Below, in pieces: positions 3,544 to 23,126 of a stretch of DNA of 64,000 nt. The notes beneath the pieces are model-generated. The model was not told the DNA's origin and made no database searches. It saw only the letters and a list, made by a program, of their open reading frames with translations. The DNA comes from a bacterium. Lineage in GTDB: Bacteria; Patescibacteriota; UBA1384; CAILIB01. Made by a program: the position numbers and the translations under genes. Numbering within the stretch: the first letter of the stretch is position 1; each line of letters begins with the position of its first letter. The stretch lies in assembly GCA_037131105.1 (NCBI GenBank), contig JBAXRQ010000001.1:194039-258038 (forward strand). Reading direction: 5' to 3'.

Positions 3544-4944
3544 TTACCCGACACTGCCTGACATCTGGAGTTCAATCAAGCGGTTCATCTCCACCGCGTA
3601 CTCCATGGGCAGCTCCTTCACGATGGGTTCGATGAACCCGTTGACGATAAGTCCGGCCGCTTCCGCCTCGGAAAGCCCGCGGGACCTCAGGTAGAAGAGC
3701 TGCTCCTCGCCCAGCCGTGAGACCGTGGCCTCATGCTCGATCTTTACATCCCGCTGGTTGATGTCCATGGTCGGATAGGTGTCGGAGCGGGAGGCCTCGT
3801 CCAGGATCAGGGCATCGCAGGTTACCTTAGAAAAAGCTCCAGTAGCCTTTTTATTTGTTTTTACCAGCCCCCGGTAGGAGGTGCGGCCACCCCCGTGGGA
3901 GACCGATTTTGACGTGATGACCGAGGAGGTATTCGGCGCCAGGTGGACGGCCTTGGCGCCCGCGTCCTGGTGCTGGTTGGGTCCGGCCAAGGCTAATGAC
4001 AATATCTCGGCCCGGGCGCCTTCCCCTATCATAAAGACACTCGGATACTTCATGGTGACCCGGGAACCCAGGTTGCAGTCCACCCATTCCATGGTGGCGT
4101 TTTTGTGGGCGATCGCCCGCTTGGTGACCAGGTTGTAGACATTGTCCGACCAGTTCTGGATGGTACTGTAGCGGACCCGGGCGCCCGGCATGACGATGAC
4201 CTCGACCACAGCTGAGTGCAGGGAGTCGCTAGAATAGGTCGGGGCCGAGCAGCCTTCCACATAGTGCACGTAGGAGCCTTCCTCGGCGATGATTAGGGTC
4301 CGTTCGAACTGGCCGGCGTTCCTGGCATTGATCCGGAAGTAGGCCTGCAGGGGCACGTCGATATGCACCCCCTTGGGGACGTAGACATAGCTGCCGCCGC
4401 TCCAGACCGCGGTATTTAAGGCGGCGAACTTGTTGTCATGGGCGGGGATGACGGTGCCGAAGTGGGTTTTGATGATTTCCTCGTGCTCGCGCAGGGCAGT
4501 ATCGGTGTCCAGAAATACCACACCTTGGTCCTTCCACTTCTGCTGGAGGTTGTGGTAGATGACCTCGCTCTCATACTGGGCGCCCACTCCAGCCAGGAAC
4601 TTCTTCTCAGCCTCGGGCACACCCAGCTTGTCGAAGGTGTTTTTGATGGTATCGGAGACGTCATCCCAGGTACGAGACGGACGATCCTGTGACCTCATGA
4701 AGTAGGTCATCTCGTTGAAGTCGAGTCCGAACAGATCAGCTCCCCAGGTGGGAAGCGGCTTCTCAAGGAAAATCTCGTAGGCCTCCAGGCGCTTTTCCAG
4801 CATCCACAACGGCTCTTTCTTAAAGGCCGAGATAGCCCGCACCGTCTCCTCGGAAAGGCCCTTGGGAGTACGGGTCAGGTATTCCTCCGGGTCGGAGAAG
4901 CCATATGTATAGGGGCTGGCCTTGTAGTCAGTTGGGCTAGCCAT
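3544..4944 (-). CDS. sufB: Fe-S cluster assembly protein SufB
   Basis: Strong family resemblance along the full length; C-terminal FYLRSRGLSEAEA; start trimmed to the internal ATG at 4944 (MASPTDYKASPYTYGF) because the longer ORF overlaps the upstream gene. Confidence 0.9.
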   Translation of the reverse strand: MASPTDYKASPYTYGFSDPEEYLTRTPKGLSEETVRAISAFKKEPLWMLEKRLEAYEIFLEKPLPTWGADLFGLDFNEMTYFMRSQDRPSRTWDDVSDTIKNTFDKLGVPEAEKKFLAGVGAQYESEVIYHNLQQKWKDQGVVFLDTDTALREHEEIIKTHFGTVIPAHDNKFAALNTAVWSGGSYVYVPKGVHIDVPLQAYFRINARNAGQFERTLIIAEEGSYVHYVEGCSAPTYSSDSLHSAVVEVIVMPGARVRYSTIQNWSDNVYNLVTKRAIAHKNATMEWVDCNLGSRVTMKYPSVFMIGEGARAEILSLALAGPNQHQDAGAKAVHLAPNTSSVITSKSVSHGGGRTSYRGLVKTNKKATGAFSKVTCDALILDEASRSDTYPTMDINQRDVKIEHEATVSRLGEEQLFYLRSRGLSEAEAAGLIVNGFIEPIVKELPMEYAVEMNRLIELQMSGSVG

Positions 4945-7328: not shown

Positions 7329-8693
7329 ATGTCGCTTACTCTCTCATTTCAGGATCTCTTTGCCTCAGGTGACTTCACCGCAAACGATTTGGCTTGGCTG
7401 GTAGGCGAGTCGCAGCCTTTGTATGAGCGGATACAGGGGGAGATCCGTGAGGGGAAGGTAGGATTCGCAGCTCTCCCCTATCAGTCTGATGAGGAGATTG
7501 GTGCCATTACTGAACTGGCCTTACGGGTACGTAACCAGTTCAAGAACCTGGTAGTTATCGGCATCGGCGGATCGGACTTGGGTGCGCGAGCCGTACAGCG
7601 GGCCTTAAACCATCAGTTTTATAATCTCAAGGCCCAGCCACACCTGTTCTTTGTAGGTGATACTACTGATCCCGTAGCTCTGCAGGAGGTTCTGGACGTT
7701 ACACCTCTTAAAGATACCGCCTTCGTAGTCATCTCTAAATCTGGCAATACTGTCGAGCAGATGAGTACCTTCGTGTATGTCCGTCAGCTGCTGCTGGATG
7801 CATTGGGGGTAGAAGAGACAAAGGAGCATATCATCATATTGACTGACGAGCATACCGGTACTCTGCGGGAGATCGTCAAGCGCGAGGGCTATCGAAGCCT
7901 GGTGATACCCGCTACTGTGGGGGGCCGCTTCTCAGTGCTGACCAGCGTAGGACTCTTTCCATTGGCTGTAGCCGGAGTGGATATCCGGGGGTTACTTGAG
8001 GGCGCCAAGGCCATGGCCGAGCATGATCGGACGCAAACGGGGATGGGAAATCTTCCTCTGATCTATGCCGTTTCCCAGATGCATTCATATCGTTCTGGCC
8101 GGCCTATCTCAGTACTCATGCCCTATGCTTACTCGTTACGTGAGATGGGCTTCTGGTTCCGTCAGCTCTGGGCAGAGAGTCTCGGTAAAAAAGTCGATCT
8201 AGAAGGAACTACTATTCATGTTGGCCCAACCCCAATAGCCGCTGTGGGGCCTACCGACCAGCACTCCCAGGTCCAGTTGTATATGGAGGGACCTGCCGAC
8301 AAGATCTTTACCTTTATTACGGTAGACGAGCCGGCCGTGAACCTGACCCTGCCTGGCGCCTATCCTGATCTTGAAGGAGTAAGCTATCTCAAAGGGCATG
8401 ATTTTGCTGAGATTCTGGCTGCTGAGCAGGCTAGTACCGCCTATGCCTTAGCTCAGGCCGGACGTCCTAGCTGCGTGATCCGTCTACCAAAGCTCGACGC
8501 CCATGCCATCGGAGAGCTGCTCTACTTCTTTGAGCTGGCAGTCACCTATGCCGGAGGCATCTTAAATATCAATCCCTTTGACCAGCCTGGTGTGGAGATC
8601 GGCAAGCAGTATATGTATGGTCTGCTGGGTCGTCCTGGGTTTGAGGATAAGCGGTTTGAACGAAATGACACTTCCCATAGTATTCATTCGTAA
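7329..8693 (+). CDS. pgi: glucose-6-phosphate isomerase
   Basis: Motifs SKSGNTVE, GGRFS, GPTDQHSQ typical of PGI. Confidence 0.9.
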   Translation: MSLTLSFQDLFASGDFTANDLAWLVGESQPLYERIQGEIREGKVGFAALPYQSDEEIGAITELALRVRNQFKNLVVIGIGGSDLGARAVQRALNHQFYNLKAQPHLFFVGDTTDPVALQEVLDVTPLKDTAFVVISKSGNTVEQMSTFVYVRQLLLDALGVEETKEHIIILTDEHTGTLREIVKREGYRSLVIPATVGGRFSVLTSVGLFPLAVAGVDIRGLLEGAKAMAEHDRTQTGMGNLPLIYAVSQMHSYRSGRPISVLMPYAYSLREMGFWFRQLWAESLGKKVDLEGTTIHVGPTPIAAVGPTDQHSQVQLYMEGPADKIFTFITVDEPAVNLTLPGAYPDLEGVSYLKGHDFAEILAAEQASTAYALAQAGRPSCVIRLPKLDAHAIGELLYFFELAVTYAGGILNINPFDQPGVEIGKQYMYGLLGRPGFEDKRFERNDTSHSIHS

Positions 8694-8702
8694 TATCAGA
8701 CT

Positions 8703-9053
8703 ATGTTGCTGCTTAGCTGGCTGATCAATGCGCTCGCTCTGATTCTGGTATCAAATTTTGTGCCGGGTTTTGAGGTAAATGGTATCTTTGCTGCCTTGGT
8801 GGCTGCCTTTATCCTGGGACTGGTCAACGCCGTCATCAGGCCGATACTGATCCTACTTACTCTGCCGATAAACTTACTTACCCTGGGTCTGTTCACCTTG
8901 GTGATCAATGCCCTCATGCTTGAGCTGGTAGCGAGCATCGTCAAGGGCTTTACTATCGAGACATTCTGGGCCGCCCTCTGGGGAGCTATCGTGCTGGCTC
9001 TTATCAGCTGGGCCACTAATTATTTTCTGAAGAGCAGTAACTCCGAGCAGTAA
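8703..9053 (+). CDS. DUF360 / phage-holin-4_2 family 4-TM membrane protein (YvlD-like)
   Basis: Four hydrophobic segments; RPILILLTLPINLLTLGLFTLVINALML pattern typical of the family. Confidence 0.55.
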   Translation: MLLLSWLINALALILVSNFVPGFEVNGIFAALVAAFILGLVNAVIRPILILLTLPINLLTLGLFTLVINALMLELVASIVKGFTIETFWAALWGAIVLALISWATNYFLKSSNSEQ

Positions 9054-9194
9054 GCGCTGCATGTAGTAGTCTGGGCGGTTTCAATCGGATGAGACGGGCT
9101 GGGTATGTGATACTCAGCTTTGCTCCACCTGACGTAGCTACTCTTCCTGGTGAGTCGTGCAAATGACTACCATGTCAACAGCGATGTAACTTGA

Positions 9195-10540
<1,346 letters not shown>

Positions 10541-10541
<1 letters not shown>

Positions 10542-12046
10542 TGAAGCCCCTGGCCCTTATCGTCCTGGACGGCTGGGGATACCGGGAGGAAGCCACCCAC
10601 AATGCCGTGGCCACTGCCAGCACCCCTGTCTTTGACAGAGTCTGGAAGGAGAACCCGCACACCCTACTGGAGGCCAGCGGGGAGCAGGTGGGACTTCCTG
10701 AGGGCCAGATAGGAAATAGTGAGATAGGCCATACCACTATCGGGGCTGGGAAGGTAATGGCCACCGACCTGGTGCGCATCACCAAGGCCGGTAAGAACGG
10801 TGAGTTCACCAGTAATCCGGTCTTTACCGAGCTGTTCGACCATGTGAAGTCCTACGGCACCGTGCTGCACGTGCTGGGACAGGTGAGTGCCGGAGGCGTG
10901 CATAGCCACCAGGATCACCTGTTCTATTTCCTGCGCGCTGCCAAGGAAGCGGGTGTCCAGAAGATAGCCATCCATGCCTATACTGACGGCCGCGACGTGC
11001 CGCCAAAGAGCGGGGCCGGCTACATGAAGGAGCTGGAGGCGCTGCTTGCTGAGCTGGGTATCGGCCATATTGCCACGGTCACCGGTCGCTACTATGCTAT
11101 GGACCGGGACAATAACTGGCACCGGCTGGCTAAGGCAGAGGCGGCTATGTTTGAGCACGCTGCTCCCACTTACTTGCAAAAGCCTTCGGCCGCTATGGAA
11201 GATGCCTATGGCCGCGGCAAGGTGGATGAGCACCTGGAGCCCATGGTGTTTGCCGACGAGAAGGGTAACTATTATCCTATCGCCAAGGATGACGCCGTCT
11301 TTGTCTTTAATTACCGTTCCGACCGGGTGCGTATGCTTACCCGTCGGCTTCTCGAGCGAGGTGCCGACCTCGGCCTGCTGATCGCCACCATGACCGAGTA
11401 TCATCCTGACTTCCAGGTGAAAGTCGCCTTCCCTCCGACTACCATCGAGACTACCCTGGGCGCCGAGGTGGCCAGAGCCGGGCTTACCCAGGCCCATATT
11501 GCCGAGACCGAGAAGTTTCCCCACGCTACCTACTTTTTAAATGGTGGCAAGCAGGAGCCCCATGAGGGCGAGGAGCATGTCATGCTGGACAGCCGCAAGG
11601 ACGTGGCTACCCATGACGAGGCGCCGGAGATGCGGGCCGAGGCCATCGCCGATGCTGCCGTAGACAGGCTGCAGAAGGGGGCCGACTTCATCTTTATTAA
11701 CTTTGCCAATCCTGACATGGTGGGCCATACCGCCAACGTCCCGGCCATCGTTACTGCTCTTGAAACGGTGGACCGTGAGCTTGCCAAGGTTCTGGCCGAG
11801 ATCAAGAACCAGGGTGGCGTAGCCCTGGTGACCGCTGATCATGGCAATGCCGAAATCAACATAGATCCGATGACCGGAGAGCGACATACCGCTCATACCC
11901 TGAGCCTGGTGCCGTTCATCGTAGTGGGCGCCGAGGTCAAACTGCGGGAGCTGGGTGGCCTTTCAGATATCGCCCCTACTGCCCTTGAGCTGCTGGGTAT
12001 CCAGAAGCCATCTTCAATGACCGGGGAGAGCCTTATTGTGAAATAG
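10541..12046 (+). CDS. gpmI: 2,3-bisphosphoglycerate-independent phosphoglycerate mutase
   Basis: N-terminal LIVLDGWG, metal-binding ADHGN; about 500 aa iPGM architecture. Confidence 0.9.
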
Positions 12047-14114: not shown

Positions 14115-14262
14115 GGCTCTAGTATAGAGGAATTAAGGGACAACAACTATGTTTAGGAGTGACCGGGAGTTCCGCTCCCATATATCTTTGGAGTCGCTAC
14201 ACGGCTTTCCGGACTTCGCCGGAAGCGCCAGCGAACCGCGGTTTCGAACCCGCACGATCCAA

Positions 14263-14303
14263 CCAGAGAAAAAGACCCATACAAGATGGGTCTTTTTCTC
14301 TGG
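14263..14303. terminator. 18-bp perfect hairpin (ccagagaaaaagacccat acaag atgggtctttttctctgg)
   Basis: Perfect inverted repeat with internal A/T runs; sits between divergent genes next to a 12-nt copy of the tRNA-Asp 3' end. Confidence 0.5.
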
Positions 14304-14391
14304 CGGGAGCGATGGGTCGATTTCCGAACTTCGTGTAATGTTGTTTCATACTTTGCTGATGGAGATATATACTTAGCTCATAATTAATATT

Positions 14392-15468
14392 ATGACTATG
14401 TTTTGCACTGAATGTGGTTGTGAACTCCGACATAAGGGGAAGTTTTGTCCAGAATGTGGTCACTTGGTTACTAAGGGGGGCGAAGGCCTATCGGCCTGTC
14501 ACATTAATCCGGAGACTAATCCCTTGAAACGTCAAATGAAGAGCAAATATCGCCAACCATGGCTTATTGCAGGTTGCTGTCTTATATCGATCGGGATAAT
14601 TTCAGGAGTAGTGTACATCTTCTATCAGAAAGGTTTTGGAAGTCGGAATAATGAGGCCAATATAACGAATCGGGCACGTTTAGATAGCCTGGAGGCAATG
14701 CTCCAGGACGGCGACAGTCTCGTTTCTATTTGGAACGATACTGCAGATAGGGCAAACGAAGACCGACTTCATGAGCAATCCATAATTGCTGATTTTAAAT
14801 CAAAGTCGCAAGATCAAGTCGAACCTGTGAAGTCGTTGTCGGCAAATTGGCTTTTCGAAGCCGCAGAAATACAGAATACTGCACCATGTGATTGTTTTGG
14901 TCCGTCTGTTACGGCGAGCAAAAGCGAGATTCAAGACGGACACAAAGCATTGAACAGAATTAAAGTAATCGATTCTCAACTTGCTATCCAGCATTCGCTC
15001 CTAAAAGGAGGAGCAGTTCCTTCTAATGAGCAGGTAACATCCGATCTTAAGTCTGATGCTAAGAATATTCAAACGAACTTCATAATTGAAGCCGTCATAT
15101 CAGATGCCTGGCAGCATAACAAGAATCACTCTTTTATTGGGGAGTGGGTTTCGTTAGCTCCGGCTGGGAAGGATCAAGTTGACTGGGCATCGATGGGACT
15201 GAATGCTAATGGGACAGATGTTGTTGGCAACTCTGGTGCGGATCTGGGGGCGTCGTTAAACGCCTCACAGTCTTACGAGAAATCTATTCTCGATCTCGGG
15301 AGGCTTACACAGGTTGCGGGTGGCTCTGTTCGGGATCTGACGAATAAAGTACTTGAGCAGTCCCTGATATTGTGGGATCACTCAGTTACTAATACGCTCT
15401 ACGGAGACGTTCTTGGCGTTTTCTCTAAACTTCAAGAGTTAGTCCTTGAGATTTCTGCCTTGAGCTAA
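14392..15468 (+). CDS. zinc-ribbon (CxxC...CxxC) single-pass membrane protein with extracytoplasmic domain
   Basis: N-terminal MTMFCTECGCELRHKGKFCPECGH, then a TM segment (WLIAGCCLISIGIISGVVYIF); AT-richer than its neighbours. Confidence 0.5.
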   Translation: MTMFCTECGCELRHKGKFCPECGHLVTKGGEGLSACHINPETNPLKRQMKSKYRQPWLIAGCCLISIGIISGVVYIFYQKGFGSRNNEANITNRARLDSLEAMLQDGDSLVSIWNDTADRANEDRLHEQSIIADFKSKSQDQVEPVKSLSANWLFEAAEIQNTAPCDCFGPSVTASKSEIQDGHKALNRIKVIDSQLAIQHSLLKGGAVPSNEQVTSDLKSDAKNIQTNFIIEAVISDAWQHNKNHSFIGEWVSLAPAGKDQVDWASMGLNANGTDVVGNSGADLGASLNASQSYEKSILDLGRLTQVAGGSVRDLTNKVLEQSLILWDHSVTNTLYGDVLGVFSKLQELVLEISALS

Positions 15469-15505
15469 AGTCTTTAGTGCCTTTTGGTGCGAAGGGTACG
15501 GGAAG

Positions 15506-16426
15506 TCAATGTACGGGACTAATTAAGGCAGCAGTATTATTGCGAGGATTCCCCACCTGTTCCGACACTGGATATGACTCCATGCTCTTCGCCTCATAGG
15601 GTATGAGCAATGATTGGAGGTGGGCTAGCGGCGCTTCAGGGTCCAGCCACACTGCCTCGTCCTTCCGATGAAGGATGACCGGCATCCGGTCGTGCACCTC
15701 AGCGGCCAGAGGGTTCGGCGCCGTCGTGATAATGGTATACGTCTGCAGCTCCTTACCTTCCTTGTTATGCCATTCCGCCGTGAGCCCCGCCAGGGCGAAG
15801 TACTCCTCTTCTCGCAGCCTGAAGTAATACGGCTGCTTGCCTGAGCCAACCTTCTTCCACTCGTAGTAGCCCGTGATGGGTACCAGGCACCGGCGCTTCT
15901 CGAACGACTTTTTGAAGGAGTTCTTCTCGTGCACCGTCTCAGCCCGGGCGTTTATCATCTTGTAGCCTATCTTCTCGTCTGACGCCCACACGGGGACGAG
16001 CCCCCACTTCATGAGCTCGAGGCGGTTGGGGCTGTTCTCCTCCATCGTCCTCACCTTCAGTATGGGTGTGCCGGTGAAGTCGATGACCGCCTCGTCGATG
16101 CTCTTGGGGGTCACGTCGGGGCTGTAGTCTCGGTAGATGCGGCAGAAGCGCTTGTGCACCTCACGGTAGAGGTTTGGATCGGGCGGGATGATGGCGATGT
16201 CGGGGGCGAGCATGCGGGCCTCGCGCACGTTGACGGCGGTCTTTATCCCCGCCTGCTTGGCCTCGTAGCTGGGGCTCACCACGCAGCCCCCGGGCCCCGT
16301 GTAGGCCGCAACGCCCACCGGCTTCCCCCTCAGAAGCGGCCAGGCCTGCTGCTCGGCACGCGCGAATGAGGCGTTCATGTCGATGTGCATGATCGTTGCG
16401 GGGTTGCGGTTAATCGGCAAGTCCAT
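15506..16426 (-). CDS. in-frame chimera: Y-family DNA polymerase N-terminal palm fragment fused to an SRAP (YedK/HMCES) C-terminal domain
   Basis: Residues ~1-125 carry IMHIDMNASFARAEQ and SIDEAVIDFTG, matching the DinB/UmuC catalytic motifs; residues ~135-306 (KWGLVPVWASD...INARAETV...RRCLVPITGYYEWKK...IHDRMPVIL...VSEQVGNPRNNTAALISPV) match SRAP; the SRAP N-terminal Cys2 nucleophile region and the polymerase fingers/thumb/little-finger are absent. Confidence 0.6.
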   Translation of the reverse strand: MDLPINRNPATIMHIDMNASFARAEQQAWPLLRGKPVGVAAYTGPGGCVVSPSYEAKQAGIKTAVNVREARMLAPDIAIIPPDPNLYREVHKRFCRIYRDYSPDVTPKSIDEAVIDFTGTPILKVRTMEENSPNRLELMKWGLVPVWASDEKIGYKMINARAETVHEKNSFKKSFEKRRCLVPITGYYEWKKVGSGKQPYYFRLREEEYFALAGLTAEWHNKEGKELQTYTIITTAPNPLAAEVHDRMPVILHRKDEAVWLDPEAPLAHLQSLLIPYEAKSMESYPVSEQVGNPRNNTAALISPVH

Positions 16427-16679
16427 CGGAGGCCTCGATTAGCGTTGCGTGCAGGGTGTCGCCGTCCACGTGGATGCGCATGTCCAGGGCGCCGACGTTG
16501 ACGCAGAAGACGTGCACCTGCTTGCGGCCGTCCCGCACGGTGTAGGCCATGCCGGTCTCCCGCACCAGGTAGTCCCGGCCCTGCCAGCGCACGCACAGCA
16601 GGGACGCGCGCTGAGCGACGGAGTCGATGTCGACGCGCACCTTCACCGCCTCGTTGATGGGTGTCCTCATGCTAGGCAC
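16410..16679 (-). CDS. small hypothetical protein upstream of the polymerase/SRAP chimera (possible UmuD/YolD-type accessory)
   Basis: 89-aa ORF overlapping the downstream start by 17 nt; GC-rich patch; function speculative. Confidence 0.25.
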   Translation of the reverse strand: MPSMRTPINEAVKVRVDIDSVAQRASLLCVRWQGRDYLVRETGMAYTVRDGRKQVHVFCVNVGALDMRIHVDGDTLHATLIEASDGLAD

Positions 16680-16769
16680 TATACACCAAACATATACCGA
16701 ACAGTCAAGGCAACAACCGACAGTCTAGAGGTCTCAGGTTCTAATTGAAACAAATTGGGAGGTCGATCG

Positions 16770-17093
16770 TCACGGTGTTTGGAGGGCGTCAGGATTGTAA
16801 GCGCACATTGTGTTTGCTATTGGAGCTGCGTTCCCCGTCCCTCTAGTATAGTCGTTGACGCGTCTGGGTACGCCATCAGAATACCTCCAGACTAGTGTTA
16901 CGAAGGCGGCCTCTCCTCTTAAGGCTCTCTCTAGCACCATGCTAACTAGAAGTTCCTTGTTGGTCTTCTCTTGTCCGGCAGGAATCTTTTCCAAGCATTG
17001 CCTCATGAGGTCTGCCATGGATTGGCCTTTTCTGGGTCTGCCGTTTGGGTTCCGTGTTTCCCCCTTGAGCATCGTTGTGGAGTTGCGGGGCAT
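16770..17093 (-). CDS. phage/plasmid-associated small protein (RNPNGRPRKG motif, DUF5681-like)
   Basis: N-terminal GETRNPNGRPRKG motif common in phage small proteins. Confidence 0.35.
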   Translation of the reverse strand: MPRNSTTMLKGETRNPNGRPRKGQSMADLMRQCLEKIPAGQEKTNKELLVSMVLERALRGEAAFVTLVWRYSDGVPRRVNDYTRGTGNAAPIANTMCAYNPDALQTP

Positions 17094-17189
17094 AGGCCTG
17101 TTAATTGCCTGTTTTTATAATCGCAATATACCCCTAAGTGGCCTCTGCATCCATCGGAGGACCTGGAGTTGGCAGCTTGTGAAGCAGAA

Positions 17190-18245
17190 TCACTTAGGAT
17201 TATTTGGATAAGCCACGCTCCTGATATAGTTCGAGCTCAGGGCATACCCGGTTCCTTCAGCGGGCACGTATGCGCTGCTCCACACCAGCTTCTCGGTATT
17301 CATGCCGACGACTCCACAAGCACTGACCAGCGGGCCACCTGAGTTCCCGGGGTTGATAGTTGCATCTGTCTGTAGCAGTTCACGACCGCTGTCTGTTACC
17401 CTTCGCGATAAGATCCCCTTGGTAATTGTAGCTTCGCCAGATGGGGAGTTAGGCCAACCTACGGTATAGACAGTCTCAGCATCCTTCAGCATATCTGAAT
17501 TGGAGAGCGACATGGTGAAATGGAATGAGTAGTCTACCTTGAGTATGGCTATGTCCTGGTCGGGGTAGGCTGCATAGACGGAAGCGTCCATATCCTTATT
17601 CCCGTCATAACCTATCCATACCCTAATAGTCTTAACTCCCTGGATCACATGGTAATTTGTTAGGACTAGGCCAGGGGTTGAGTCGGTCAGTGCCATACCC
17701 GATCCTGAGCCAATCAAGTTACCCCGGCTATCATAGTCTCTGACAAGATGGGCCGCCGCCTTAGCAGCATGGAGAGTGGCTTGCTCGTCGCACCCTGTTG
17801 GCATTGAGGATGCAACAACTGGAGAGGACGTGTAGCCGCCTATACTATTATTATAATTAGCTGTGGCAATAGCTTTCATGACTGACAAAACCAATACGAT
17901 AGCGAATATCCATATTGCTTTCCGTACTCGAGGGCTCATTCTTCTGATTCTCTTGTGGCAGTATCTGCAAACACGGGCATCCGCTTTTATCTTCTCGGCA
18001 CAGTGTGGGCAGATCTTGTGGCCAGGCTTGGGAGATAGGCTCCTCTCTCTGCCCTCTTTCTCAAGACGCTCGTATGCAGTGAAGAAATCCTCTTCTACCG
18101 GATGGTCTTGTTGCTTCGGTGGTATTCCTTCGTTTGTTTTCATCGTGTGAGATGTTTCCGTCAGGGGTAAGCCGAGGTTGTTCCATTTCTTCGTTATTGG
18201 GTAGCGGGTGGAAATACCCTCAAGAATACAATAAAGGCCAAGCAC
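17190..18245 (-). CDS. membrane-anchored trypsin-like (S1/HtrA-type) serine protease with N-terminal zinc ribbon
   Basis: CPHCAEK...CRYCHK zinc ribbon; TM; TNYHVIQG (His), D, and GNSGGPL (Ser) catalytic triad motifs. Confidence 0.6.
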   Translation of the reverse strand: MLGLYCILEGISTRYPITKKWNNLGLPLTETSHTMKTNEGIPPKQQDHPVEEDFFTAYERLEKEGRERSLSPKPGHKICPHCAEKIKADARVCRYCHKRIRRMSPRVRKAIWIFAIVLVLSVMKAIATANYNNSIGGYTSSPVVASSMPTGCDEQATLHAAKAAAHLVRDYDSRGNLIGSGSGMALTDSTPGLVLTNYHVIQGVKTIRVWIGYDGNKDMDASVYAAYPDQDIAILKVDYSFHFTMSLSNSDMLKDAETVYTVGWPNSPSGEATITKGILSRRVTDSGRELLQTDATINPGNSGGPLVSACGVVGMNTEKLVWSSAYVPAEGTGYALSSNYIRSVAYPNNPK

Positions 18246-18437
18246 CTAGGTTGCTTGGACCAACAGATGGCTTGCGCCTACTGCTTTTGGTGCTTGACCT
18301 GTTACCAGGCGCAAGCACCCCTTTGAAGGGAAGCTGTGATGTAAGCCAAACTGTTGATCCAAGCCACTAAATCATAGCCCGTTTAACCTTGAAATACAAC
18401 AAAAGCACCGGACGGCTGACGGAGTTCTAACTCGGTT

Positions 18438-18809
18438 CTATTTGATCCAGCCGAGGGCTTTGAAGGTAAGCTCTAGGTATTTAAGTCGTACCCGCTGGTC
18501 GGGTACTACTTCTACTGCGTACTTGCCGCGCACTTTCTCCCAGCCGTGGTCTGTCTTTCGGAAGATGGGTCTTATCTCTAGCTTGGTCGCCTCGAGGCCA
18601 TTACCTAGGCCCCAAACTTGGGACCGCGGCCCTAGGGCCTTGTGGAGCAAGTAGCTTACTCCAGGTTGGGCATGGATGGCACGACCTGGATTCCTGGCAG
18701 TGCTTGGGCTGTACCCTGCAAGACGGGCGGCGAGGCCCTTAGAATATCCTTCCGCAAGGAGCTGCGCATATCTATAAGCACGTGGGCTGGGTCTCTTGAG
18801 TATGGGCAT
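18438..18809 (-). CDS. small HTH protein, phage terminase-small-subunit-like
   Basis: N-terminal AQLLAEGYSKGLAARLAGYSPSTARNPGR HTH-like segment. Confidence 0.3.
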   Translation of the reverse strand: MPILKRPSPRAYRYAQLLAEGYSKGLAARLAGYSPSTARNPGRAIHAQPGVSYLLHKALGPRSQVWGLGNGLEATKLEIRPIFRKTDHGWEKVRGKYAVEVVPDQRVRLKYLELTFKALGWIK

Positions 18810-18935
18810 AACGGCAGTATTATAGCAGACCTAGGAAGTAACCTATCAGTAGTTTGCTCAGATAAGAATTTGAGAACAACACGTGGCGCTTGCTTTGGGA
18901 TCCTGCTATCCTCCAATCATAAGACTGACACGACT

Positions 18936-20102
18936 ATGACAATGAATGATAATGAACTTCTAGGTCATTTCCTTGAGAATGCCTTGGTGGCGAAGAAAGA
19001 CAGCCATTTATTTTTGGCTGTATCTGATTATGTGAACTACGTAGATTCCTCTGAGAGGTGGTCGGCAATAATGGTTGAGAAAGTGCTCTCTGAGCGAAGG
19101 GATCTTGAAAGTCGCCTCAGCGAGCTCGGTGCAGAAGTGATAGCGGAATCTGAACGATGCTTTGATGCAGTATCTGCAAAGCTGATTTCGCATGGCATAA
19201 AGGTGGACGGGGAGCTGACGTCAAGACTGGATGCATATCGCAACATTCTTTCAGGCTCATACCAGAGTTCAGAACCATATCCGAAATCTGTTTACGGTTC
19301 CGTCGGCCGTCTTCTTAGCGAGCTAAAGGATAGGGGACATGGAGATTTATTTGCCGACAGTATTTCGACAGATGACAAGACTACAAATTATGTCTGGACA
19401 TTCTCCAAGAAGTACAGAGAATACGAGGAGCTGCTTCAAGTCTTTGAACGAAGGCGACGTGACAGCGCATGGGGGTCTTGGGAGACCCTTGGCCATGTAT
19501 TCCACACAATTGCCCTTCGGGATCAGATTACTAAGAAACTCAGTCAACACGGCTATGAGTGGACGTTCATGAACTACTTATATATGGCCAGCGCGATGGA
19601 CAAGATTCTGGATTCGGGATCAGCTCTTGGGCAAACCGTATTCGATAGAGAAAGCACAGAATGGTCCCTTAGAAGGATCCACGCTCGGTTACTCTTGGCT
19701 GACGGTGGGGGCGTTACGGAATCTCAAAGCTCTCAAGTCGGTACTGATAATTCTGAATCTATAGGCCTAATGCCTAGTTATCAGGTGGGACCGTTAATTC
19801 TTGATCTGGAAAAGGGTCAACTAGTGGTACGGGGTCAGAAACCCTTAGACGTATCTACCAAGAGCCGCCCGATGATCATGTTGCGCTTGTTAATGCAGAA
19901 ACCGGGCGTCGTTGTTTCGCATTCCGAAATAGTTGACGCTTCCTCAAAAGAGGGCTCAGCCGCGAACAATGACGATATAGACGCAAACAAGCTTAGAGTA
20001 CAAATTGATTATCTCCTCATACGTGCTGGAATGGACAAACAGAAAGCAAAAGAGCTGATTAGGTCGGAGCGGGGAAAGGGGTATAAGATTTACCCCAACT
20101 AG
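18936..20102 (+). CDS. hypothetical protein with C-terminal OmpR/PhoB-type winged-helix DNA-binding domain
   Basis: C-terminal KSRPMIMLRLLMQKPGVVVSHSEIV...KLRVQIDYLLIR...RGKGYKIYPN matches the trans_reg_C pattern; start set to the ATG at 18936 to avoid overlap; AT-rich. Confidence 0.45.
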   Translation: MTMNDNELLGHFLENALVAKKDSHLFLAVSDYVNYVDSSERWSAIMVEKVLSERRDLESRLSELGAEVIAESERCFDAVSAKLISHGIKVDGELTSRLDAYRNILSGSYQSSEPYPKSVYGSVGRLLSELKDRGHGDLFADSISTDDKTTNYVWTFSKKYREYEELLQVFERRRRDSAWGSWETLGHVFHTIALRDQITKKLSQHGYEWTFMNYLYMASAMDKILDSGSALGQTVFDRESTEWSLRRIHARLLLADGGGVTESQSSQVGTDNSESIGLMPSYQVGPLILDLEKGQLVVRGQKPLDVSTKSRPMIMLRLLMQKPGVVVSHSEIVDASSKEGSAANNDDIDANKLRVQIDYLLIRAGMDKQKAKELIRSERGKGYKIYPN

Positions 20103-20220
20103 TCCGTCTTTAAAGGCAGGCTGTATTCTTCCATGATATTTCCGGAACTTTTCCGGATCTTTTTTTGAATGGTTTTGAGGCTCCCAGTGTAGTTATATTG
20201 AGGCAACAAAGCCTGACCTA

Positions 20221-20466
20221 ATGACTATTACCATGGATCCTTTTAGAACGAGCAACCTGCCTCTAGCTACCTGCCTTAGCCTTTATTACCCAGTAAGCAC
20301 AATAGACAGATCTGAACCTCGCGCCGTCTTCTACTTTGAGCGTGGAGAAGGCATGGATGACCTTGTCCAGATGTTTCACGCGCGGACTATGGCTGTTGAG
20401 CCGCAGGCCTATGCCGACGCGATGAGATCGCTTAAAGCCCGCCTGTATGCAAGGGAGGACCCTTGA
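20221..20466 (+). CDS. hypothetical small protein
   Basis: ORF only. Confidence 0.25.
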   Translation: MTITMDPFRTSNLPLATCLSLYYPVSTIDRSEPRAVFYFERGEGMDDLVQMFHARTMAVEPQAYADAMRSLKARLYAREDP

Positions 20467-20626
20467 TCTCCAAAGATGCGGCCTTACAGCTCAAGGTAAT
20501 TCTTGAGGAGGACTTTGATATAGCAGTGACATTGGAAGAGGCAACTTCTCTGGCAACTCTGTGGATCGGATATTTCGACCTTCTTAAGAGTAGCGGGGAA
20601 TCTACCGGTTCGTAACAGCATAAGGT

Positions 20627-20938
20627 ATGAATATGACCATAAATCGCAGCAAGAAGGGCGGAGGTACTAGGACGGATAAGCAAGGGCGGAAAGCTGGAAA
20701 GTTCAGAATCCTTATCAGTTGGGTCGGGGAAAGTGGCGTTCCTGAGCGCAGGCAGACCGACAATATTTCCAAAGCCCAGAATTGTCTAAGGGGCATAAGG
20801 AGAGGGCCAATAAAGGTGGCGTGCTCTTTCGTGAGTGCAGATAATACTGGGGTGTTTCCGACCAGGGAGTCTGCGCGTCATTTCCTTCAGAACAACTGGC
20901 AGGATTATCAGATATGGAGGAAGGATGGTGATGATTGA
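20627..20938 (+). CDS. hypothetical small basic protein
   Basis: ORF only. Confidence 0.25.
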   Translation: MNMTINRSKKGGGTRTDKQGRKAGKFRILISWVGESGVPERRQTDNISKAQNCLRGIRRGPIKVACSFVSADNTGVFPTRESARHFLQNNWQDYQIWRKDGDD

Positions 20939-21254
20939 TCCTGCAAAGTGCGAGATCGAGCTACGTCCAAAGGATGGGCAGGGCGCTCTTTTGGCCCTGG
21001 TATCCTTTACCCAGGACGGAACAAAGCTACGGGGATTCAGACTCAAGGACGGACCTTACGGCCTTTGGTTGGAAGAGCCAAAGATTAGGACCGGCAAGGG
21101 CTGGATCTCCATATACTTTGATGAGGACAAGGCCCGGTTCAAGGCCCTCCAAGATGCTGTTGTCGCACAGTACCAGAGGCAGAATATCGGCAGAGAAGGA
21201 ATGACGCTCAGTGAACTTGAGGAGGTGGAGAAGATCATGGAACAGCCATTCTAA
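20925..21254 (+). CDS. hypothetical protein
   Basis: ATG at 20925 preceded by GGAGGAAGG RBS. Confidence 0.4.
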   Translation: MVMIDPAKCEIELRPKDGQGALLALVSFTQDGTKLRGFRLKDGPYGLWLEEPKIRTGKGWISIYFDEDKARFKALQDAVVAQYQRQNIGREGMTLSELEEVEKIMEQPF

Positions 21255-21267
21255 GTGCCAGATCACA

Positions 21268-21313
21268 CCATATAGTAACTGTTACTATATGGTAACCGTA
21301 AATATATGGTTAC
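21268..21313. repeat. two adjacent perfect palindromes (ccatatagtaac-t-gttactatatgg; gtaacc-N10-ggttac) upstream of the recombinase gene
   Basis: Direct reading; 12-bp arms. Confidence 0.7.
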
Positions 21314-21410
21314 AGTGACCCTTCCTTTTAACAAGTGACTATGGGTGGTAAAGTTAGGGTGCTACCCAATCCGACAATACCAAGAGCTATTTGTTTGCTT
21401 GCTGCCTGAG

Positions 21411-21465
21411 AGGGCGGTTCAGCCAGAAAGCTATGCTCTTGCGTAGTCGGACTGGGTAGCCTGAA
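21411..21465. repeat. 12-bp inverted repeat agggcggttcag / ctgaaccgccct flanking a ~28-nt spacer, followed by TTTT (terminator or recombination site)
   Basis: Direct reading; 25 nt upstream of the recombinase start. Confidence 0.55.
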
Positions 21466-21489
21466 CCGCCCTTTTAGTAACCCTAAACT

Positions 21490-23061
21490 ATGAAAGCAGT
21501 GCTATTGTGTCGTGTCTCAAGCAGAGATCAGGAACTAAGCGGATACTCTCTTCCCGCTCAGGAGAAGCTCCTTTCTCAGTATGCAGAGAACAAGGGACTA
21601 AAGGTGGACAAGGTGTATGCAATATCGGAGTCGGCAAGTGGTAGCAGCACTAGAAAGACGTTCAATGAGATGATGTCCTATATCCAGAAGGAAAAGGTGG
21701 GGTGTATCATTGCCGAGAAAGTCGACCGACTGACCCGTGAACTTAAGACGGCGGTCGCAATGAATGAGTGGTTAGAGGGAGACGACGGGCGTCAGCTCCA
21801 TCTGGTTAAGGATTCCCTGATCCTCCACAAGAACTCCCGAAGCCAGGAGAAGTTAAACTGGGGACTTCGGGTTATTCTTGCTAAGAACTACACGGACAAC
21901 CTTTCGGAGGAAGTCAGAAAGGGCTGGCAGGAGAAGATATCGCAGGGCTGGTATCCGGGTCATGCAAAGTTCGGGTATCGGTCTGTGGATGAGGGCCGAC
22001 GCAAGGTTATCGAGGTGGACCCGGTAACGGCACAGTGGGTGGTTAAGATGTTCGAAGCATATGGAAGCGGAGAGTACTCGCTTAAGTCCCTTGAGCAGAA
22101 GCTGTTTGCAGAGGGCCTCAGAACGATGCGTGGCAAGAAGGTCTCTGACACCAATATCAGGACCTATCTATCTGACAAATTCTACATCGGGAAGTTTGAC
22201 TGGTGTGGAGTCACGTACGAAGGCAAGCACCGTCCGATCATCAGTAGGAGTACGTTTGAGTTTGTCCAGGCCCGACTTGCGGGAAAGAAGCCGCCGAAGC
22301 ACTCCAAGCACGAGCACCTGTTTGGCGGGACATTCATGTGCGGATATTGCCAGGGCACCATAAGCTGGGAGGCACACAAAGGATTCAAATACGGTCACTG
22401 CAACCATCACAGGGAGTGCCCCTCAAAGAAGTGGGCTCGTGAGGACGAGGTGGACGAGGTTGTTGCTACTATATTTGGCAGGCTAGTTGTTTCAAGCCCT
22501 AGGCTCCAAGCCTGGCTAAGCAGGTCCTTAAAGGAGGTGCATAGGGAGGACGAGGATACACGTACCTCAGATCTAGTAATTCTCAACAAGCGACACGACC
22601 AAGTCTGCGCCATGATCGACAGGCTTTATGACGACAAGTTAGAAGGGCTTATTGACCGTGATATGTATGATAGAAAGTTCAAGCAGCTTGCAGAAGAGAA
22701 AGAAGGGCTGGCAAGCTCGATTCACGAGAAGTCCACGATGGGAACAGAGGCCACTGCACGAGCCGCAGAAGTATTCGATATCTTCCAGCAGGGTGAGCTG
22801 ATATATCGCAAGTCAAACGTGGCTACGAAACGAAAGATGGTACGTACTGTGTTTGAGGTCCTGGAGATCAGGGATAAGCAGGTCTCAGTAAGGTTTCGTC
22901 CTGAGTTTGAGGTACTTGCTAAGGCCGTGCTGCACACCAATGGTTCGAAGGTGGAGGATTTAGAGCCGTGTAGGGATAATATTTTCGAACTTGATAAAGT
23001 AGGCTCCTATAAAAAAGAAATAGGCACACTAGTGCCTACTTACTCTTCTTGGCGGGAGTGA
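21490..23061 (+). CDS. large serine recombinase (resolvase N-domain + recombinase domain + zinc-ribbon + coiled coil)
   Basis: N-terminal ...CRVSSRDQ catalytic Ser region; central recombinase domain; C4 zinc ribbon FMCGYCQGT...YGHCNHH; stop overlaps the tRNA-Asp 3' end. Confidence 0.85.
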   Translation: MKAVLLCRVSSRDQELSGYSLPAQEKLLSQYAENKGLKVDKVYAISESASGSSTRKTFNEMMSYIQKEKVGCIIAEKVDRLTRELKTAVAMNEWLEGDDGRQLHLVKDSLILHKNSRSQEKLNWGLRVILAKNYTDNLSEEVRKGWQEKISQGWYPGHAKFGYRSVDEGRRKVIEVDPVTAQWVVKMFEAYGSGEYSLKSLEQKLFAEGLRTMRGKKVSDTNIRTYLSDKFYIGKFDWCGVTYEGKHRPIISRSTFEFVQARLAGKKPPKHSKHEHLFGGTFMCGYCQGTISWEAHKGFKYGHCNHHRECPSKKWAREDEVDEVVATIFGRLVVSSPRLQAWLSRSLKEVHREDEDTRTSDLVILNKRHDQVCAMIDRLYDDKLEGLIDRDMYDRKFKQLAEEKEGLASSIHEKSTMGTEATARAAEVFDIFQQGELIYRKSNVATKRKMVRTVFEVLEIRDKQVSVRFRPEFEVLAKAVLHTNGSKVEDLEPCRDNIFELDKVGSYKKEIGTLVPTYSSWRE

Positions 23062-23126
23062 CCGGGTTCGAACCGGCGACCTCCACAGTGACAGTGTGGC
23101 GCTCTAACCAGCTGAGCTACACCCCC
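23050..23126 (-). tRNA. tRNA-Asp (anticodon GTC)
   Basis: Hand-folded cloverleaf: acceptor GGGGGTG/CACTCCC, D-arm GCTCAGCTGGTTAGAGC, anticodon loop CTGTCAC, T-arm GCCGGTTCGAACCCGGT, encoded CCA. Confidence 0.8.

Follow-up and report, generated by a model that had tools for sequence, protein, structure and literature searches.

Within the window, a stretch of 64,000 nucleotides of contig JBAXRQ010000001.1 (positions 194,039 to 258,038, forward strand; assembly GCA_037131105.1, classified as Patescibacteriota), the minus strand encodes an open reading frame (ORF) of 306 amino acids (aa) at 15506-16426, starting with ATG, in which the N-terminal part of a Y-family DNA polymerase runs into the C-terminal part of an SRAP protein, the family of YedK and HMCES. 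Directly upstream lies a small, intact gene of 86 aa on the same strand (16410-16670, ATG at 16670), the final 17 nt of which are shared with the beginning of the fusion. An earlier note, made from the letters of this DNA, had called the larger ORF an in-frame polymerase/SRAP chimera, and domain searches bear this out. Pfam placed IMS (PF00817) at residues 15-122 (profile 1-108 of 148, E 3.5e-27) and SRAP (PF02586) at residues 122-294 (profile 41-214 of 214, E 3.3e-64), the latter with the best Pfam score, 216.8 bits. PHROGs split the protein likewise, into phrog_1268 (DNA polymerase) and phrog_1599. The motifs HIDMNA, SIDEAVIDFTG, WGLVPVW, INARAET, YYEWK and, at the C-terminus of the SRAP part, GNPRNN are all present. 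The chimera is real, far beyond chance.

The polymerase fragment comprises codons 1-130 (16037-16426, minus strand), as delimited by the IMS match and by alignments to intact polymerases and to Dpo4, and the SRAP remainder comprises codons 131-306 and the stop codon (15506-16036, minus strand), as delimited by the SRAP match and by alignments to P0002 (the closest SRAP protein), YedK, HMCES and 2f20. Part lengths had been put at ~125 and ~175 aa; the second agrees with the actual 176, and the first falls short of the actual 130. Alignment to solved structures, which had been proposed as a way to map the breakpoint, matched fusion residues 12-118, including HIDMNA and SIDEA, to Dpo4 residues 3-112, and fusion residue 131 to HMCES residue 64 and approximately YedK residue 50. 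Dpo4 consists of fingers (11-77), palm (1-10 and 78-166), thumb (167-233) and little finger (244-341). By these limits, the fragment has the fingers and a palm that breaks off after two-thirds, near Dpo4 residue 124, and neither thumb nor little finger follows. The thumb and little finger had been correctly reported as missing, whereas the fingers, also listed as lost, are kept, since the Dpo4 3-112 alignment covers them. The IMS match extends no further than profile position 108 of 148, and no Pfam match to IMS_C (PF11799, little finger) was found in the fusion. The catalytic Asp and Asp-Glu of Dpo4 and DinB (Pol IV) are retained as D16 and D111/E112 (Dpo4 D7, D105 and E106).

The SRAP residues 131-306 run along YedK ~50-221 and HMCES 64-269. 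As in these enzymes, the active-site Asn, Glu and His positions are kept: the equivalents of YedK Asn75 (INARAET), Glu105 (YYEWK) and His160 (VHDRMP) are present, where YedK itself reads LINARVET, FEWKK and IHDRRP, and all near-invariant SRAP positions of the homologue alignment are retained as well. Roles in the active site have been assigned to N75, E105 and H160 of YedK (PMC9436759 and PMC6821365). Unlike in YedK and HMCES, the SRAP domain of the fusion is internal and lacks its first ~43 residues (P0002 numbering), so that the MCGR... start with Cys2 and the YN[IV]AP motif are lost; the loss of Cys2 had been recognized before, with the missing segment overestimated at ~60 aa. All 24 of the 24 aligned SRAP homologues start with MCGR, and the fusion has polymerase sequence at the corresponding place. 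SRAP proteins crosslink to abasic sites through a thiazolidine, formed jointly by the free alpha-amine and the thiol of Cys2. Because the SRAP domain of the fusion is internal, and its cysteine is gone anyway, this crosslink would be impossible. The dependence of YedK and HMCES on Cys2 comes from structural and biochemical work (PMC6821365 and PMC9436759).

An AlphaFold2 (AF2) model of the fusion, for which a noisy and shallow alignment of 35 sequences was used, had a predicted local distance difference test score (pLDDT) above 90 for residues ~160-306 and of 29-77 over the polymerase-derived part, falling below 50 at residues 1-20 and 107-122. The SRAP match is strong but partial, with the first 40 profile positions absent, and the remainder is a candidate folding domain. 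In the same model, within residues 124-141 (window ~16004-16057), the polymerase-derived residues 124-129 (KVRTME) form a strand that pairs with SRAP strand 135-141. This is suggestive only of a replacement for the native strand that SRAP lost in the deletion (in homologues, MPVVTR).

The junction, at window position 16036/16037 on the minus strand, separates codon 130 (GAG, Glu) from codon 131 (AAC, Asn) of the fusion and was located by protein alignments and blastn. The sequence across it reads ...KVRTMEE/NSPNRLELMKWG..., with the slash marking the junction. In BLASTP comparisons with intact relatives, polymerase homology is gap-free up to Glu130 (...GTPILKVRTMEE), where intact polymerases go on with IGQEIK..., and SRAP homology starts at Asn131 (NSPNRLELMKWGLVPVW), which corresponds to residue 44 of P0002 (MCGRYTL...YNIAPGQAMPVVTR/NSPNRLE). 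At the DNA level, homology to L006, the locus of the best polymerase relative (79.7% identity), spans window 16709 to 16036, and homology to the SRAP relatives L093 and L094 (~70%) starts at the very base where the polymerase homology stops. As the two homologies meet at one base, the junction is fixed at 16036/16037, with an ambiguity or microhomology of at most about one base. The GC content at third codon positions (GC3) is 0.90-0.95 in 20-codon windows on either side, with no step at the junction. Because this matching high GC3 contrasts with the 42-50% GC of the surrounding island (described below), both halves appear to come from one compositionally foreign cassette, and the shared GC3 favours an internal deletion over a join of unrelated DNAs. 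Farther downstream, over the last ~40 SRAP codons (window 15506-15650), GC3 drops from ~0.9 to 0.5-0.65, which could be where recombination set the downstream limit of the high-GC cassette in the island.

Since the source of the window is a metagenome-assembled genome (MAG) and there is a local GC island, a chimera of assembly or binning had to be considered. Four further contigs encode exactly this fusion protein: ENA ERZ27300165 (120 kb), Logan SRR7053528 (17.8 kb), ENA ERZ27299960 (2.2 kb) and JGI 3300021601 (1.3 kb). Over 1.3-12.9 kb, junction included, their DNA matches that of the window at every base (100% identity), and they stem from at least three pipelines (MEGAHIT k141 twice, Logan, JGI) and four sample or analysis accessions. 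The same junction produced by different assemblers, within long unique flanks, makes an assembly chimera very unlikely, to the point of being almost negligible. The flanks of the cassette extend for kilobases in both directions without a compositional step at the junction, and a 1.1-kb collapse would need a long direct repeat shared by polymerase and SRAP genes, which blastn does not show in the relatives. The five identical copies may stem from one lake population.

The uniqueness of the fusion was assessed by a word-indexed search of 5.8 billion proteins, with the best 120 matches considered, and by phmmer, run exhaustively against 1.84 billion cluster representatives. Among the best 120 matches, IMS and SRAP occur together only in P0001, the window protein itself; the others are polymerases of 401-433 aa covering 37-56% of the query, or SRAP proteins of ~220 aa. 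With phmmer, the self-match scored 705.6 bits and the runner-up 205 bits, and the 149 other listed matches are all confined to the SRAP side, from query residue ~103 onwards. Two long SRAP proteins, P0189 and P0198, were examined as two-domain candidates and rejected, because their starts are mis-called and an internal ...MCGR... is present; this fits the rule that SRAP proteins start with Met-Cys. By these searches, the fusion is a singleton and not a natural architecture. An assembly error and a widespread two-domain architecture had been named beforehand as the findings that could overturn the chimera; what was found is an identical junction in four other assemblies and no other IMS+SRAP protein among the matches listed.

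Intact relatives reveal the arrangement from which the fusion probably derives. Residues 1-130 of the fusion are 85-90% identical to the N-termini of intact polymerases of 417-433 aa, and within this polymerase clade the N-terminus stays 85-90% identical across contigs of 40-65% GC. A small gene of 86-88 aa immediately precedes the polymerase in all complete loci that were inspected (the window, L005, L006-L011, L096, L098, L099 and the contig encoding P0004). The pair shares 17-20 nt in the window, L006-L011, L098, L099/L100 and the P0004 contig, and is separated in L005; the polymerase start in L096 appears to be mis-called. Intact polymerase-SRAP pairs, which the earlier note had advised looking for in related elements, are found in tandem at two loci. 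In L005, the small ORF (7725-7985), a 421-aa polymerase (8001-9266) and a 206-aa SRAP protein (9389-10009) are encoded on one strand. The P0004 contig carries an 86-aa gene, a 417-aa polymerase, a 48-aa ORF and a 231-aa SRAP protein, with polymerase and then SRAP on one strand and a serine recombinase further on. SRAP is absent beside the polymerase in L006, L011, L096 and L099 and divergent in L093, and it is a recurrent third gene of the module. Counted from polymerase codon 131 to SRAP codon ~43 in intact relatives, the deleted length would be ~1.13 kb. These intact arrangements, the two homologies meeting at one base and the uniform GC3 agree with the original proposal that a deletion fused two neighbouring genes.

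Two further observations concern these loci. The window (16410-16426), L006 (5001-5017) and L011 (2226-2242) have the same DNA sequence, ATGGACTTGCCGATTAA, in the 17-nt dual-coding overlap, which encodes the C-terminal DGLAD and stop codon of the small protein together with MDLPIN of the polymerase; in L005 (7969-8020), the overlap segment is duplicated and the genes no longer overlap. An intact pair of small ORF and polymerase is also present in a Saccharimonadales MAG (L099).

A fusion of this kind could also arise by illegitimate recombination of separate molecules or distant loci, for example of an incoming cassette of polymerase and small gene (of the ImuB-C type, as argued below) with a resident SRAP gene. 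The polymerase half is 85-90% identical to its relatives and the SRAP half at most 56-68%, the SRAP gene does not always accompany this polymerase clade, and GC3 is only 0.5-0.65 in the last ~40 SRAP codons. The unequal identity of the halves was, however, rejected as a sign of different origins, because the polymerase N-terminus evolves slowly and is conserved at 85-90% even between loci of 40% and 65% GC. GC3 values of 0.90-0.95 right beside the junction on both sides, unlike the surrounding island, and the same-strand order of polymerase then SRAP in two relatives also speak against such an event, and we regard it as improbable.

For the small gene, the ORF listing gave a GTG start at 16679 and 89 aa (16410-16679). 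The 86-aa start (ATG at 16670) is more likely, given the conserved upstream promoter and the family alignment; the overlap with the fusion that had been noted earlier is real, and only the length changes. Six relatives of the small protein were found by single-sequence search and 53 by profile search; they measure 86-88 aa, and a few longer ones have mis-called starts. None of the 53 carries a Pfam annotation, and nearly all are metagenomic, the two named MAGs belonging to Armatimonadota and Saccharimonadales. Y34, H53 and S81-D82-G83 are invariant in the family, and W29, G40, G48 and R65 nearly so. No member was found in 185,579 species genomes or in IMG/VR, and a scan of JGI metagenomes added one short locus. 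AF2 predicted an all-beta fold of seven strands (pLDDT 86). A Foldseek search of the PDB with this model gave no significant match (best E 0.2, template modelling score below 0.45), and a profile search of PDB sequences with a 47-member alignment gave chance-level matches only. Neither Pfam nor PHROGs assigned a family to the small ORF. The suggestion that it might play a UmuD- or YolD-like role found no backing: PF00717 (UmuD, Peptidase_S24) and PF08863 (YolD) gave no match at E ≤10 for 7 members or at E ≤1 for 47. By far the commonest weak match was to PF20114 (DUF6504), below threshold in 14 of the 47 members. PF20114 may correspond to ImuB-C; no literature on DUF6504/PF20114 was found.

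Among plasmids, the best relative of the polymerase is encoded on Geobacter anodireducens pSD, in the gene order lexA, an 84-aa ORF, polymerase. In hhalign, the profile of the small family matched the 84-aa pSD protein with a probability of 95.9% (E 5e-9, 80 columns). The G. sulfurreducens protein at the corresponding position is the prototype standalone ImuB-C, in the order SRAP→LexA→ImuBC→DinB (PMC3765255), and the order lexA-imuB-C-polY in G. sulfurreducens is also given in PMC6511836. ImuB-C has been described as a beta-rich protein of ~80 residues with a beta-barrel lacking close PDB relatives (PMC3765255 and PMC12926913). Taken together, the hhalign match, the gene position on pSD and this description lead us to read the small ORF as a divergent accessory subunit of the ImuB-C type, with the pSD protein itself identified as ImuB-C by synteny with GSU0042. 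On profile and synteny grounds, the previously unannotated 86-88-aa family is thus a putative ImuB-C-like partner of a distinct clade of DinB-type polymerases.

Operons of SRAP, DinB and ImuB-C have already been described (PMC3765255). As in the GSU0040-GSU0043 operon of Geobacter sulfurreducens (PMC3765255 and PMC6511836), a gene for a small beta-rich protein, here of putative ImuB-C type, lies immediately upstream of and overlaps the gene of an active-looking DinB-type polymerase, with SRAP in the operon. Unlike the Geobacter SRAP–LexA–ImuB-C–DinB operons, the cassette in the window lacks lexA and is ordered ImuB-C-like gene, polymerase, SRAP; its carrier is a serine-recombinase island of a genome that is probably from Patescibacteria, its polymerase and SRAP genes have apparently been fused by deletion, and its small protein is too divergent for any Pfam model. 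A small accessory gene upstream of a Y-family polymerase is also found in E. coli umuDC and in yolD–uvrX of Bacillus subtilis SPβ, a mobile element that carries the SRAP gene yoqW as well (PMC3765255 and PMC6511836). The small protein of the window has no detectable relation to YolD (PF08863) or UmuD (PF00717).

Upstream of the small gene, a promoter-like region of the operon was located at 16678-16708 (minus strand), with TTGACT at 16708-16703, a spacer of 19 nt and TATAGT at 16683-16678, which lies 7 nt before the ATG (TTGACT-GTTCGGTATATGTTTGGTG-TATAGT-GCCTAGC-ATG). The spacer region holds a tandem 11-mer, GTTCGGTATAT/GTTTGGTGTAT (16702-16681), in which GTTCGGTNTAY occurs twice, i.e. GTTC-N7-GTTY. 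This layout (−35-like element, tandem 11-mer, and −10-like element 6-7 nt before the ATG) is kept in L005 (~7685-7724), L006 (~4717-4756), L096 and L098 (~3960-4000), and is weaker in L011; it is conserved across loci of 40-65% GC. A consensus promoter scan of the window did not call the element because of its 19-nt spacer. The closeness of the −10 element to the ATG suggests a leaderless transcript, and the tandem 11-mer is a candidate repressor operator, which suggests that the transcript is repressor-controlled. The direct repeat resembles the GTTC-N7-GTTC LexA box of Alphaproteobacteria, a likeness that is a lead only.

From these data, we propose that the ancestral locus would have been a three-gene operon for damage tolerance, in which a small ImuB-C-like gene preceded those for a DinB-type Y-family polymerase and SRAP, on a serine-recombinase island. 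One deletion of ~1.1 kb would have taken the polymerase from codon 131 onwards, the spacer between the genes and the first 43 codons of SRAP, and, being in frame by chance, would have left a single 306-aa ORF behind the operon promoter and the intact small gene. The product would lack either parental activity, with an incomplete polymerase part and an SRAP part devoid of Cys2. We put the probability that the fusion is such a recent in-frame deletion product of a known operon type, and a non-functional relic, at roughly 85%. A deletion in a single step, its recent origin and the loss of function are likely on this evidence.

Copies of the module at other loci show comparable damage. In L093 (2739-6714), an insertion sequence (DUF772/DDE_Tnp_1_6) lies within the polymerase, and the SRAP gene is divergently oriented and frameshifted. 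The polymerase of L098 (4001-4445) is shortened to 66 aa, and that of Geobacter anodireducens pSD (L095, 2998-4226) is split into ORFs of 288 aa and 128 aa. Copies of the module on mobile elements thus appear to decay often, and in unrelated ways. One in three random deletions is in frame, and only an in-frame deletion could have been noticed in the earlier reading of the sequence.

Several findings count against a relic produced by a single deletion. No direct ancestor was found, and the closest SRAP proteins are only 56-68% identical, which leaves any breakpoint microhomology and the deleted length approximate. Neither half carries degenerative substitutions, and the ORF, the promoter and the upstream gene are all intact. 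Over the 130 residues of the polymerase part, the mean identity of the fusion to ten intact relatives is 0.84, where the relatives' own means are 0.70-0.85; over the 176 residues of the SRAP part, it is 0.56 compared with 0.50-0.57 for other SRAPs, in a set that consists of the fusion's best matches and flatters it. The relatives differ by up to 25 GC points, so synonymous sites are saturated. This apparent lack of erosion after the deletion points either to a recent event or to a constrained ORF, between which the data do not separate. The five copies, 100% identical in DNA, represent one genotype and are silent on selection, and the low AF2 confidence over the polymerase fragment may be due solely to the noise and shallowness of the alignment.

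The earlier note had left two outcomes for the fusion, a dead relic or a protein with altered abasic-site chemistry. Both enzymes are incomplete and Cys2 is gone, from which loss of function would follow. For a functional new protein, the SRAP body without its cysteine would bind single-stranded DNA or abasic sites non-covalently, tethered to the polymerase fragment. Such a protein would accord with the intact ORF behind a conserved promoter, with translational coupling to an intact upstream gene, and with the retention of the YedK Asn75/Glu105/His160 equivalents and of all near-invariant SRAP positions. It would also accord with the absence of excess divergence in either half, with the SRAP part modelled at pLDDT >90 and residues 124-129 taking the place of the lost SRAP strand, and with the occurrence of the genotype in four further assemblies. 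Yet the protein is a singleton among billions, its copies are identical in DNA and so do not demonstrate evolutionary persistence, and an open frame is expected after one in three random deletions. Both catalytic cores are incomplete, and sister loci have the module destroyed in unrelated ways. We consider a functional protein, serving together with its ImuB-C-like partner as a decoy, regulator or dominant-negative factor, highly improbable. Slightly more improbable still is the proposal that the fusion is kept because it works, as a sensor of damage, a decoy or a regulator co-expressed with that partner in a Patescibacteria host of reduced genome. A functional fusion would provide the first case of an SRAP domain working without an N-terminal cysteine.

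The cassette (~16709-15506) is an islet of 60-69% GC within a probable integrative island of ~9 kb (14156-23126, boundaries approximate), which was recognized by its low GC (42-50%, compared with 54% for the window), a serine recombinase and a tRNA-Asp gene. The large serine recombinase (21490-23061, plus strand) matched PHROG integrases with E 3.4e-70, and the tRNA-Asp gene called at 23050-23126 (minus strand) abuts the end of the recombinase gene. The island is probably an integrative element of the serine-recombinase type at tRNA-Asp. The 12-bp sequence GGAGTGACCGGG, from the 3′ end of the tRNA, is found both at 14156 and at 23055, a recurrence that by itself lacks statistical significance, and there are tRNA-like fragments at ~14250-14345, one of them resembling a tRNA 3′ end near 14333; together, they give a weak indication of the left boundary. 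Other island genes encode a trypsin-like protease, a Trans_reg_C protein, a DUF5681 protein and a zinc-ribbon protein. A 123-aa ORF (18438-18809, minus strand) with a weak terminase-small-subunit/helix-turn-helix match overlaps an ORF on the opposite strand by ~170 nt, the 486-aa ORF at 18642-20102 (plus strand), which has a weak Trans_reg_C match and was called with 476 aa in other assemblies. One start of this overlapping pair is probably mis-set.

Housekeeping genes of the window (enolase and iPGM, 9255-12046) are closest to those of MAGs from Patescibacteria, the candidate phyla radiation (CPR). The enolase is 71-76% identical to those of Berkelbacteria ELA105 (best), Vogelbacteria, Saccharibacteria and Paceibacteria MAGs, and the host is probably a CPR bacterium. 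Of the contigs that encode the fusion, the longest measures 949 kb. To our knowledge, CPR bacteria are not usually discussed as carriers of translesion or SRAP modules.

The fusion itself is of little consequence, except as a clean, datable case of the decay of a translesion-synthesis module on a mobile element. It also illustrates how automated annotation can mislead, as its NCBI name is "SOS response-associated peptidase family protein". The more reusable by-products of this analysis are the previously unannotated ImuB-C-like family, present almost only in metagenomes and including Patescibacteria MAGs, and the conserved putative operator.

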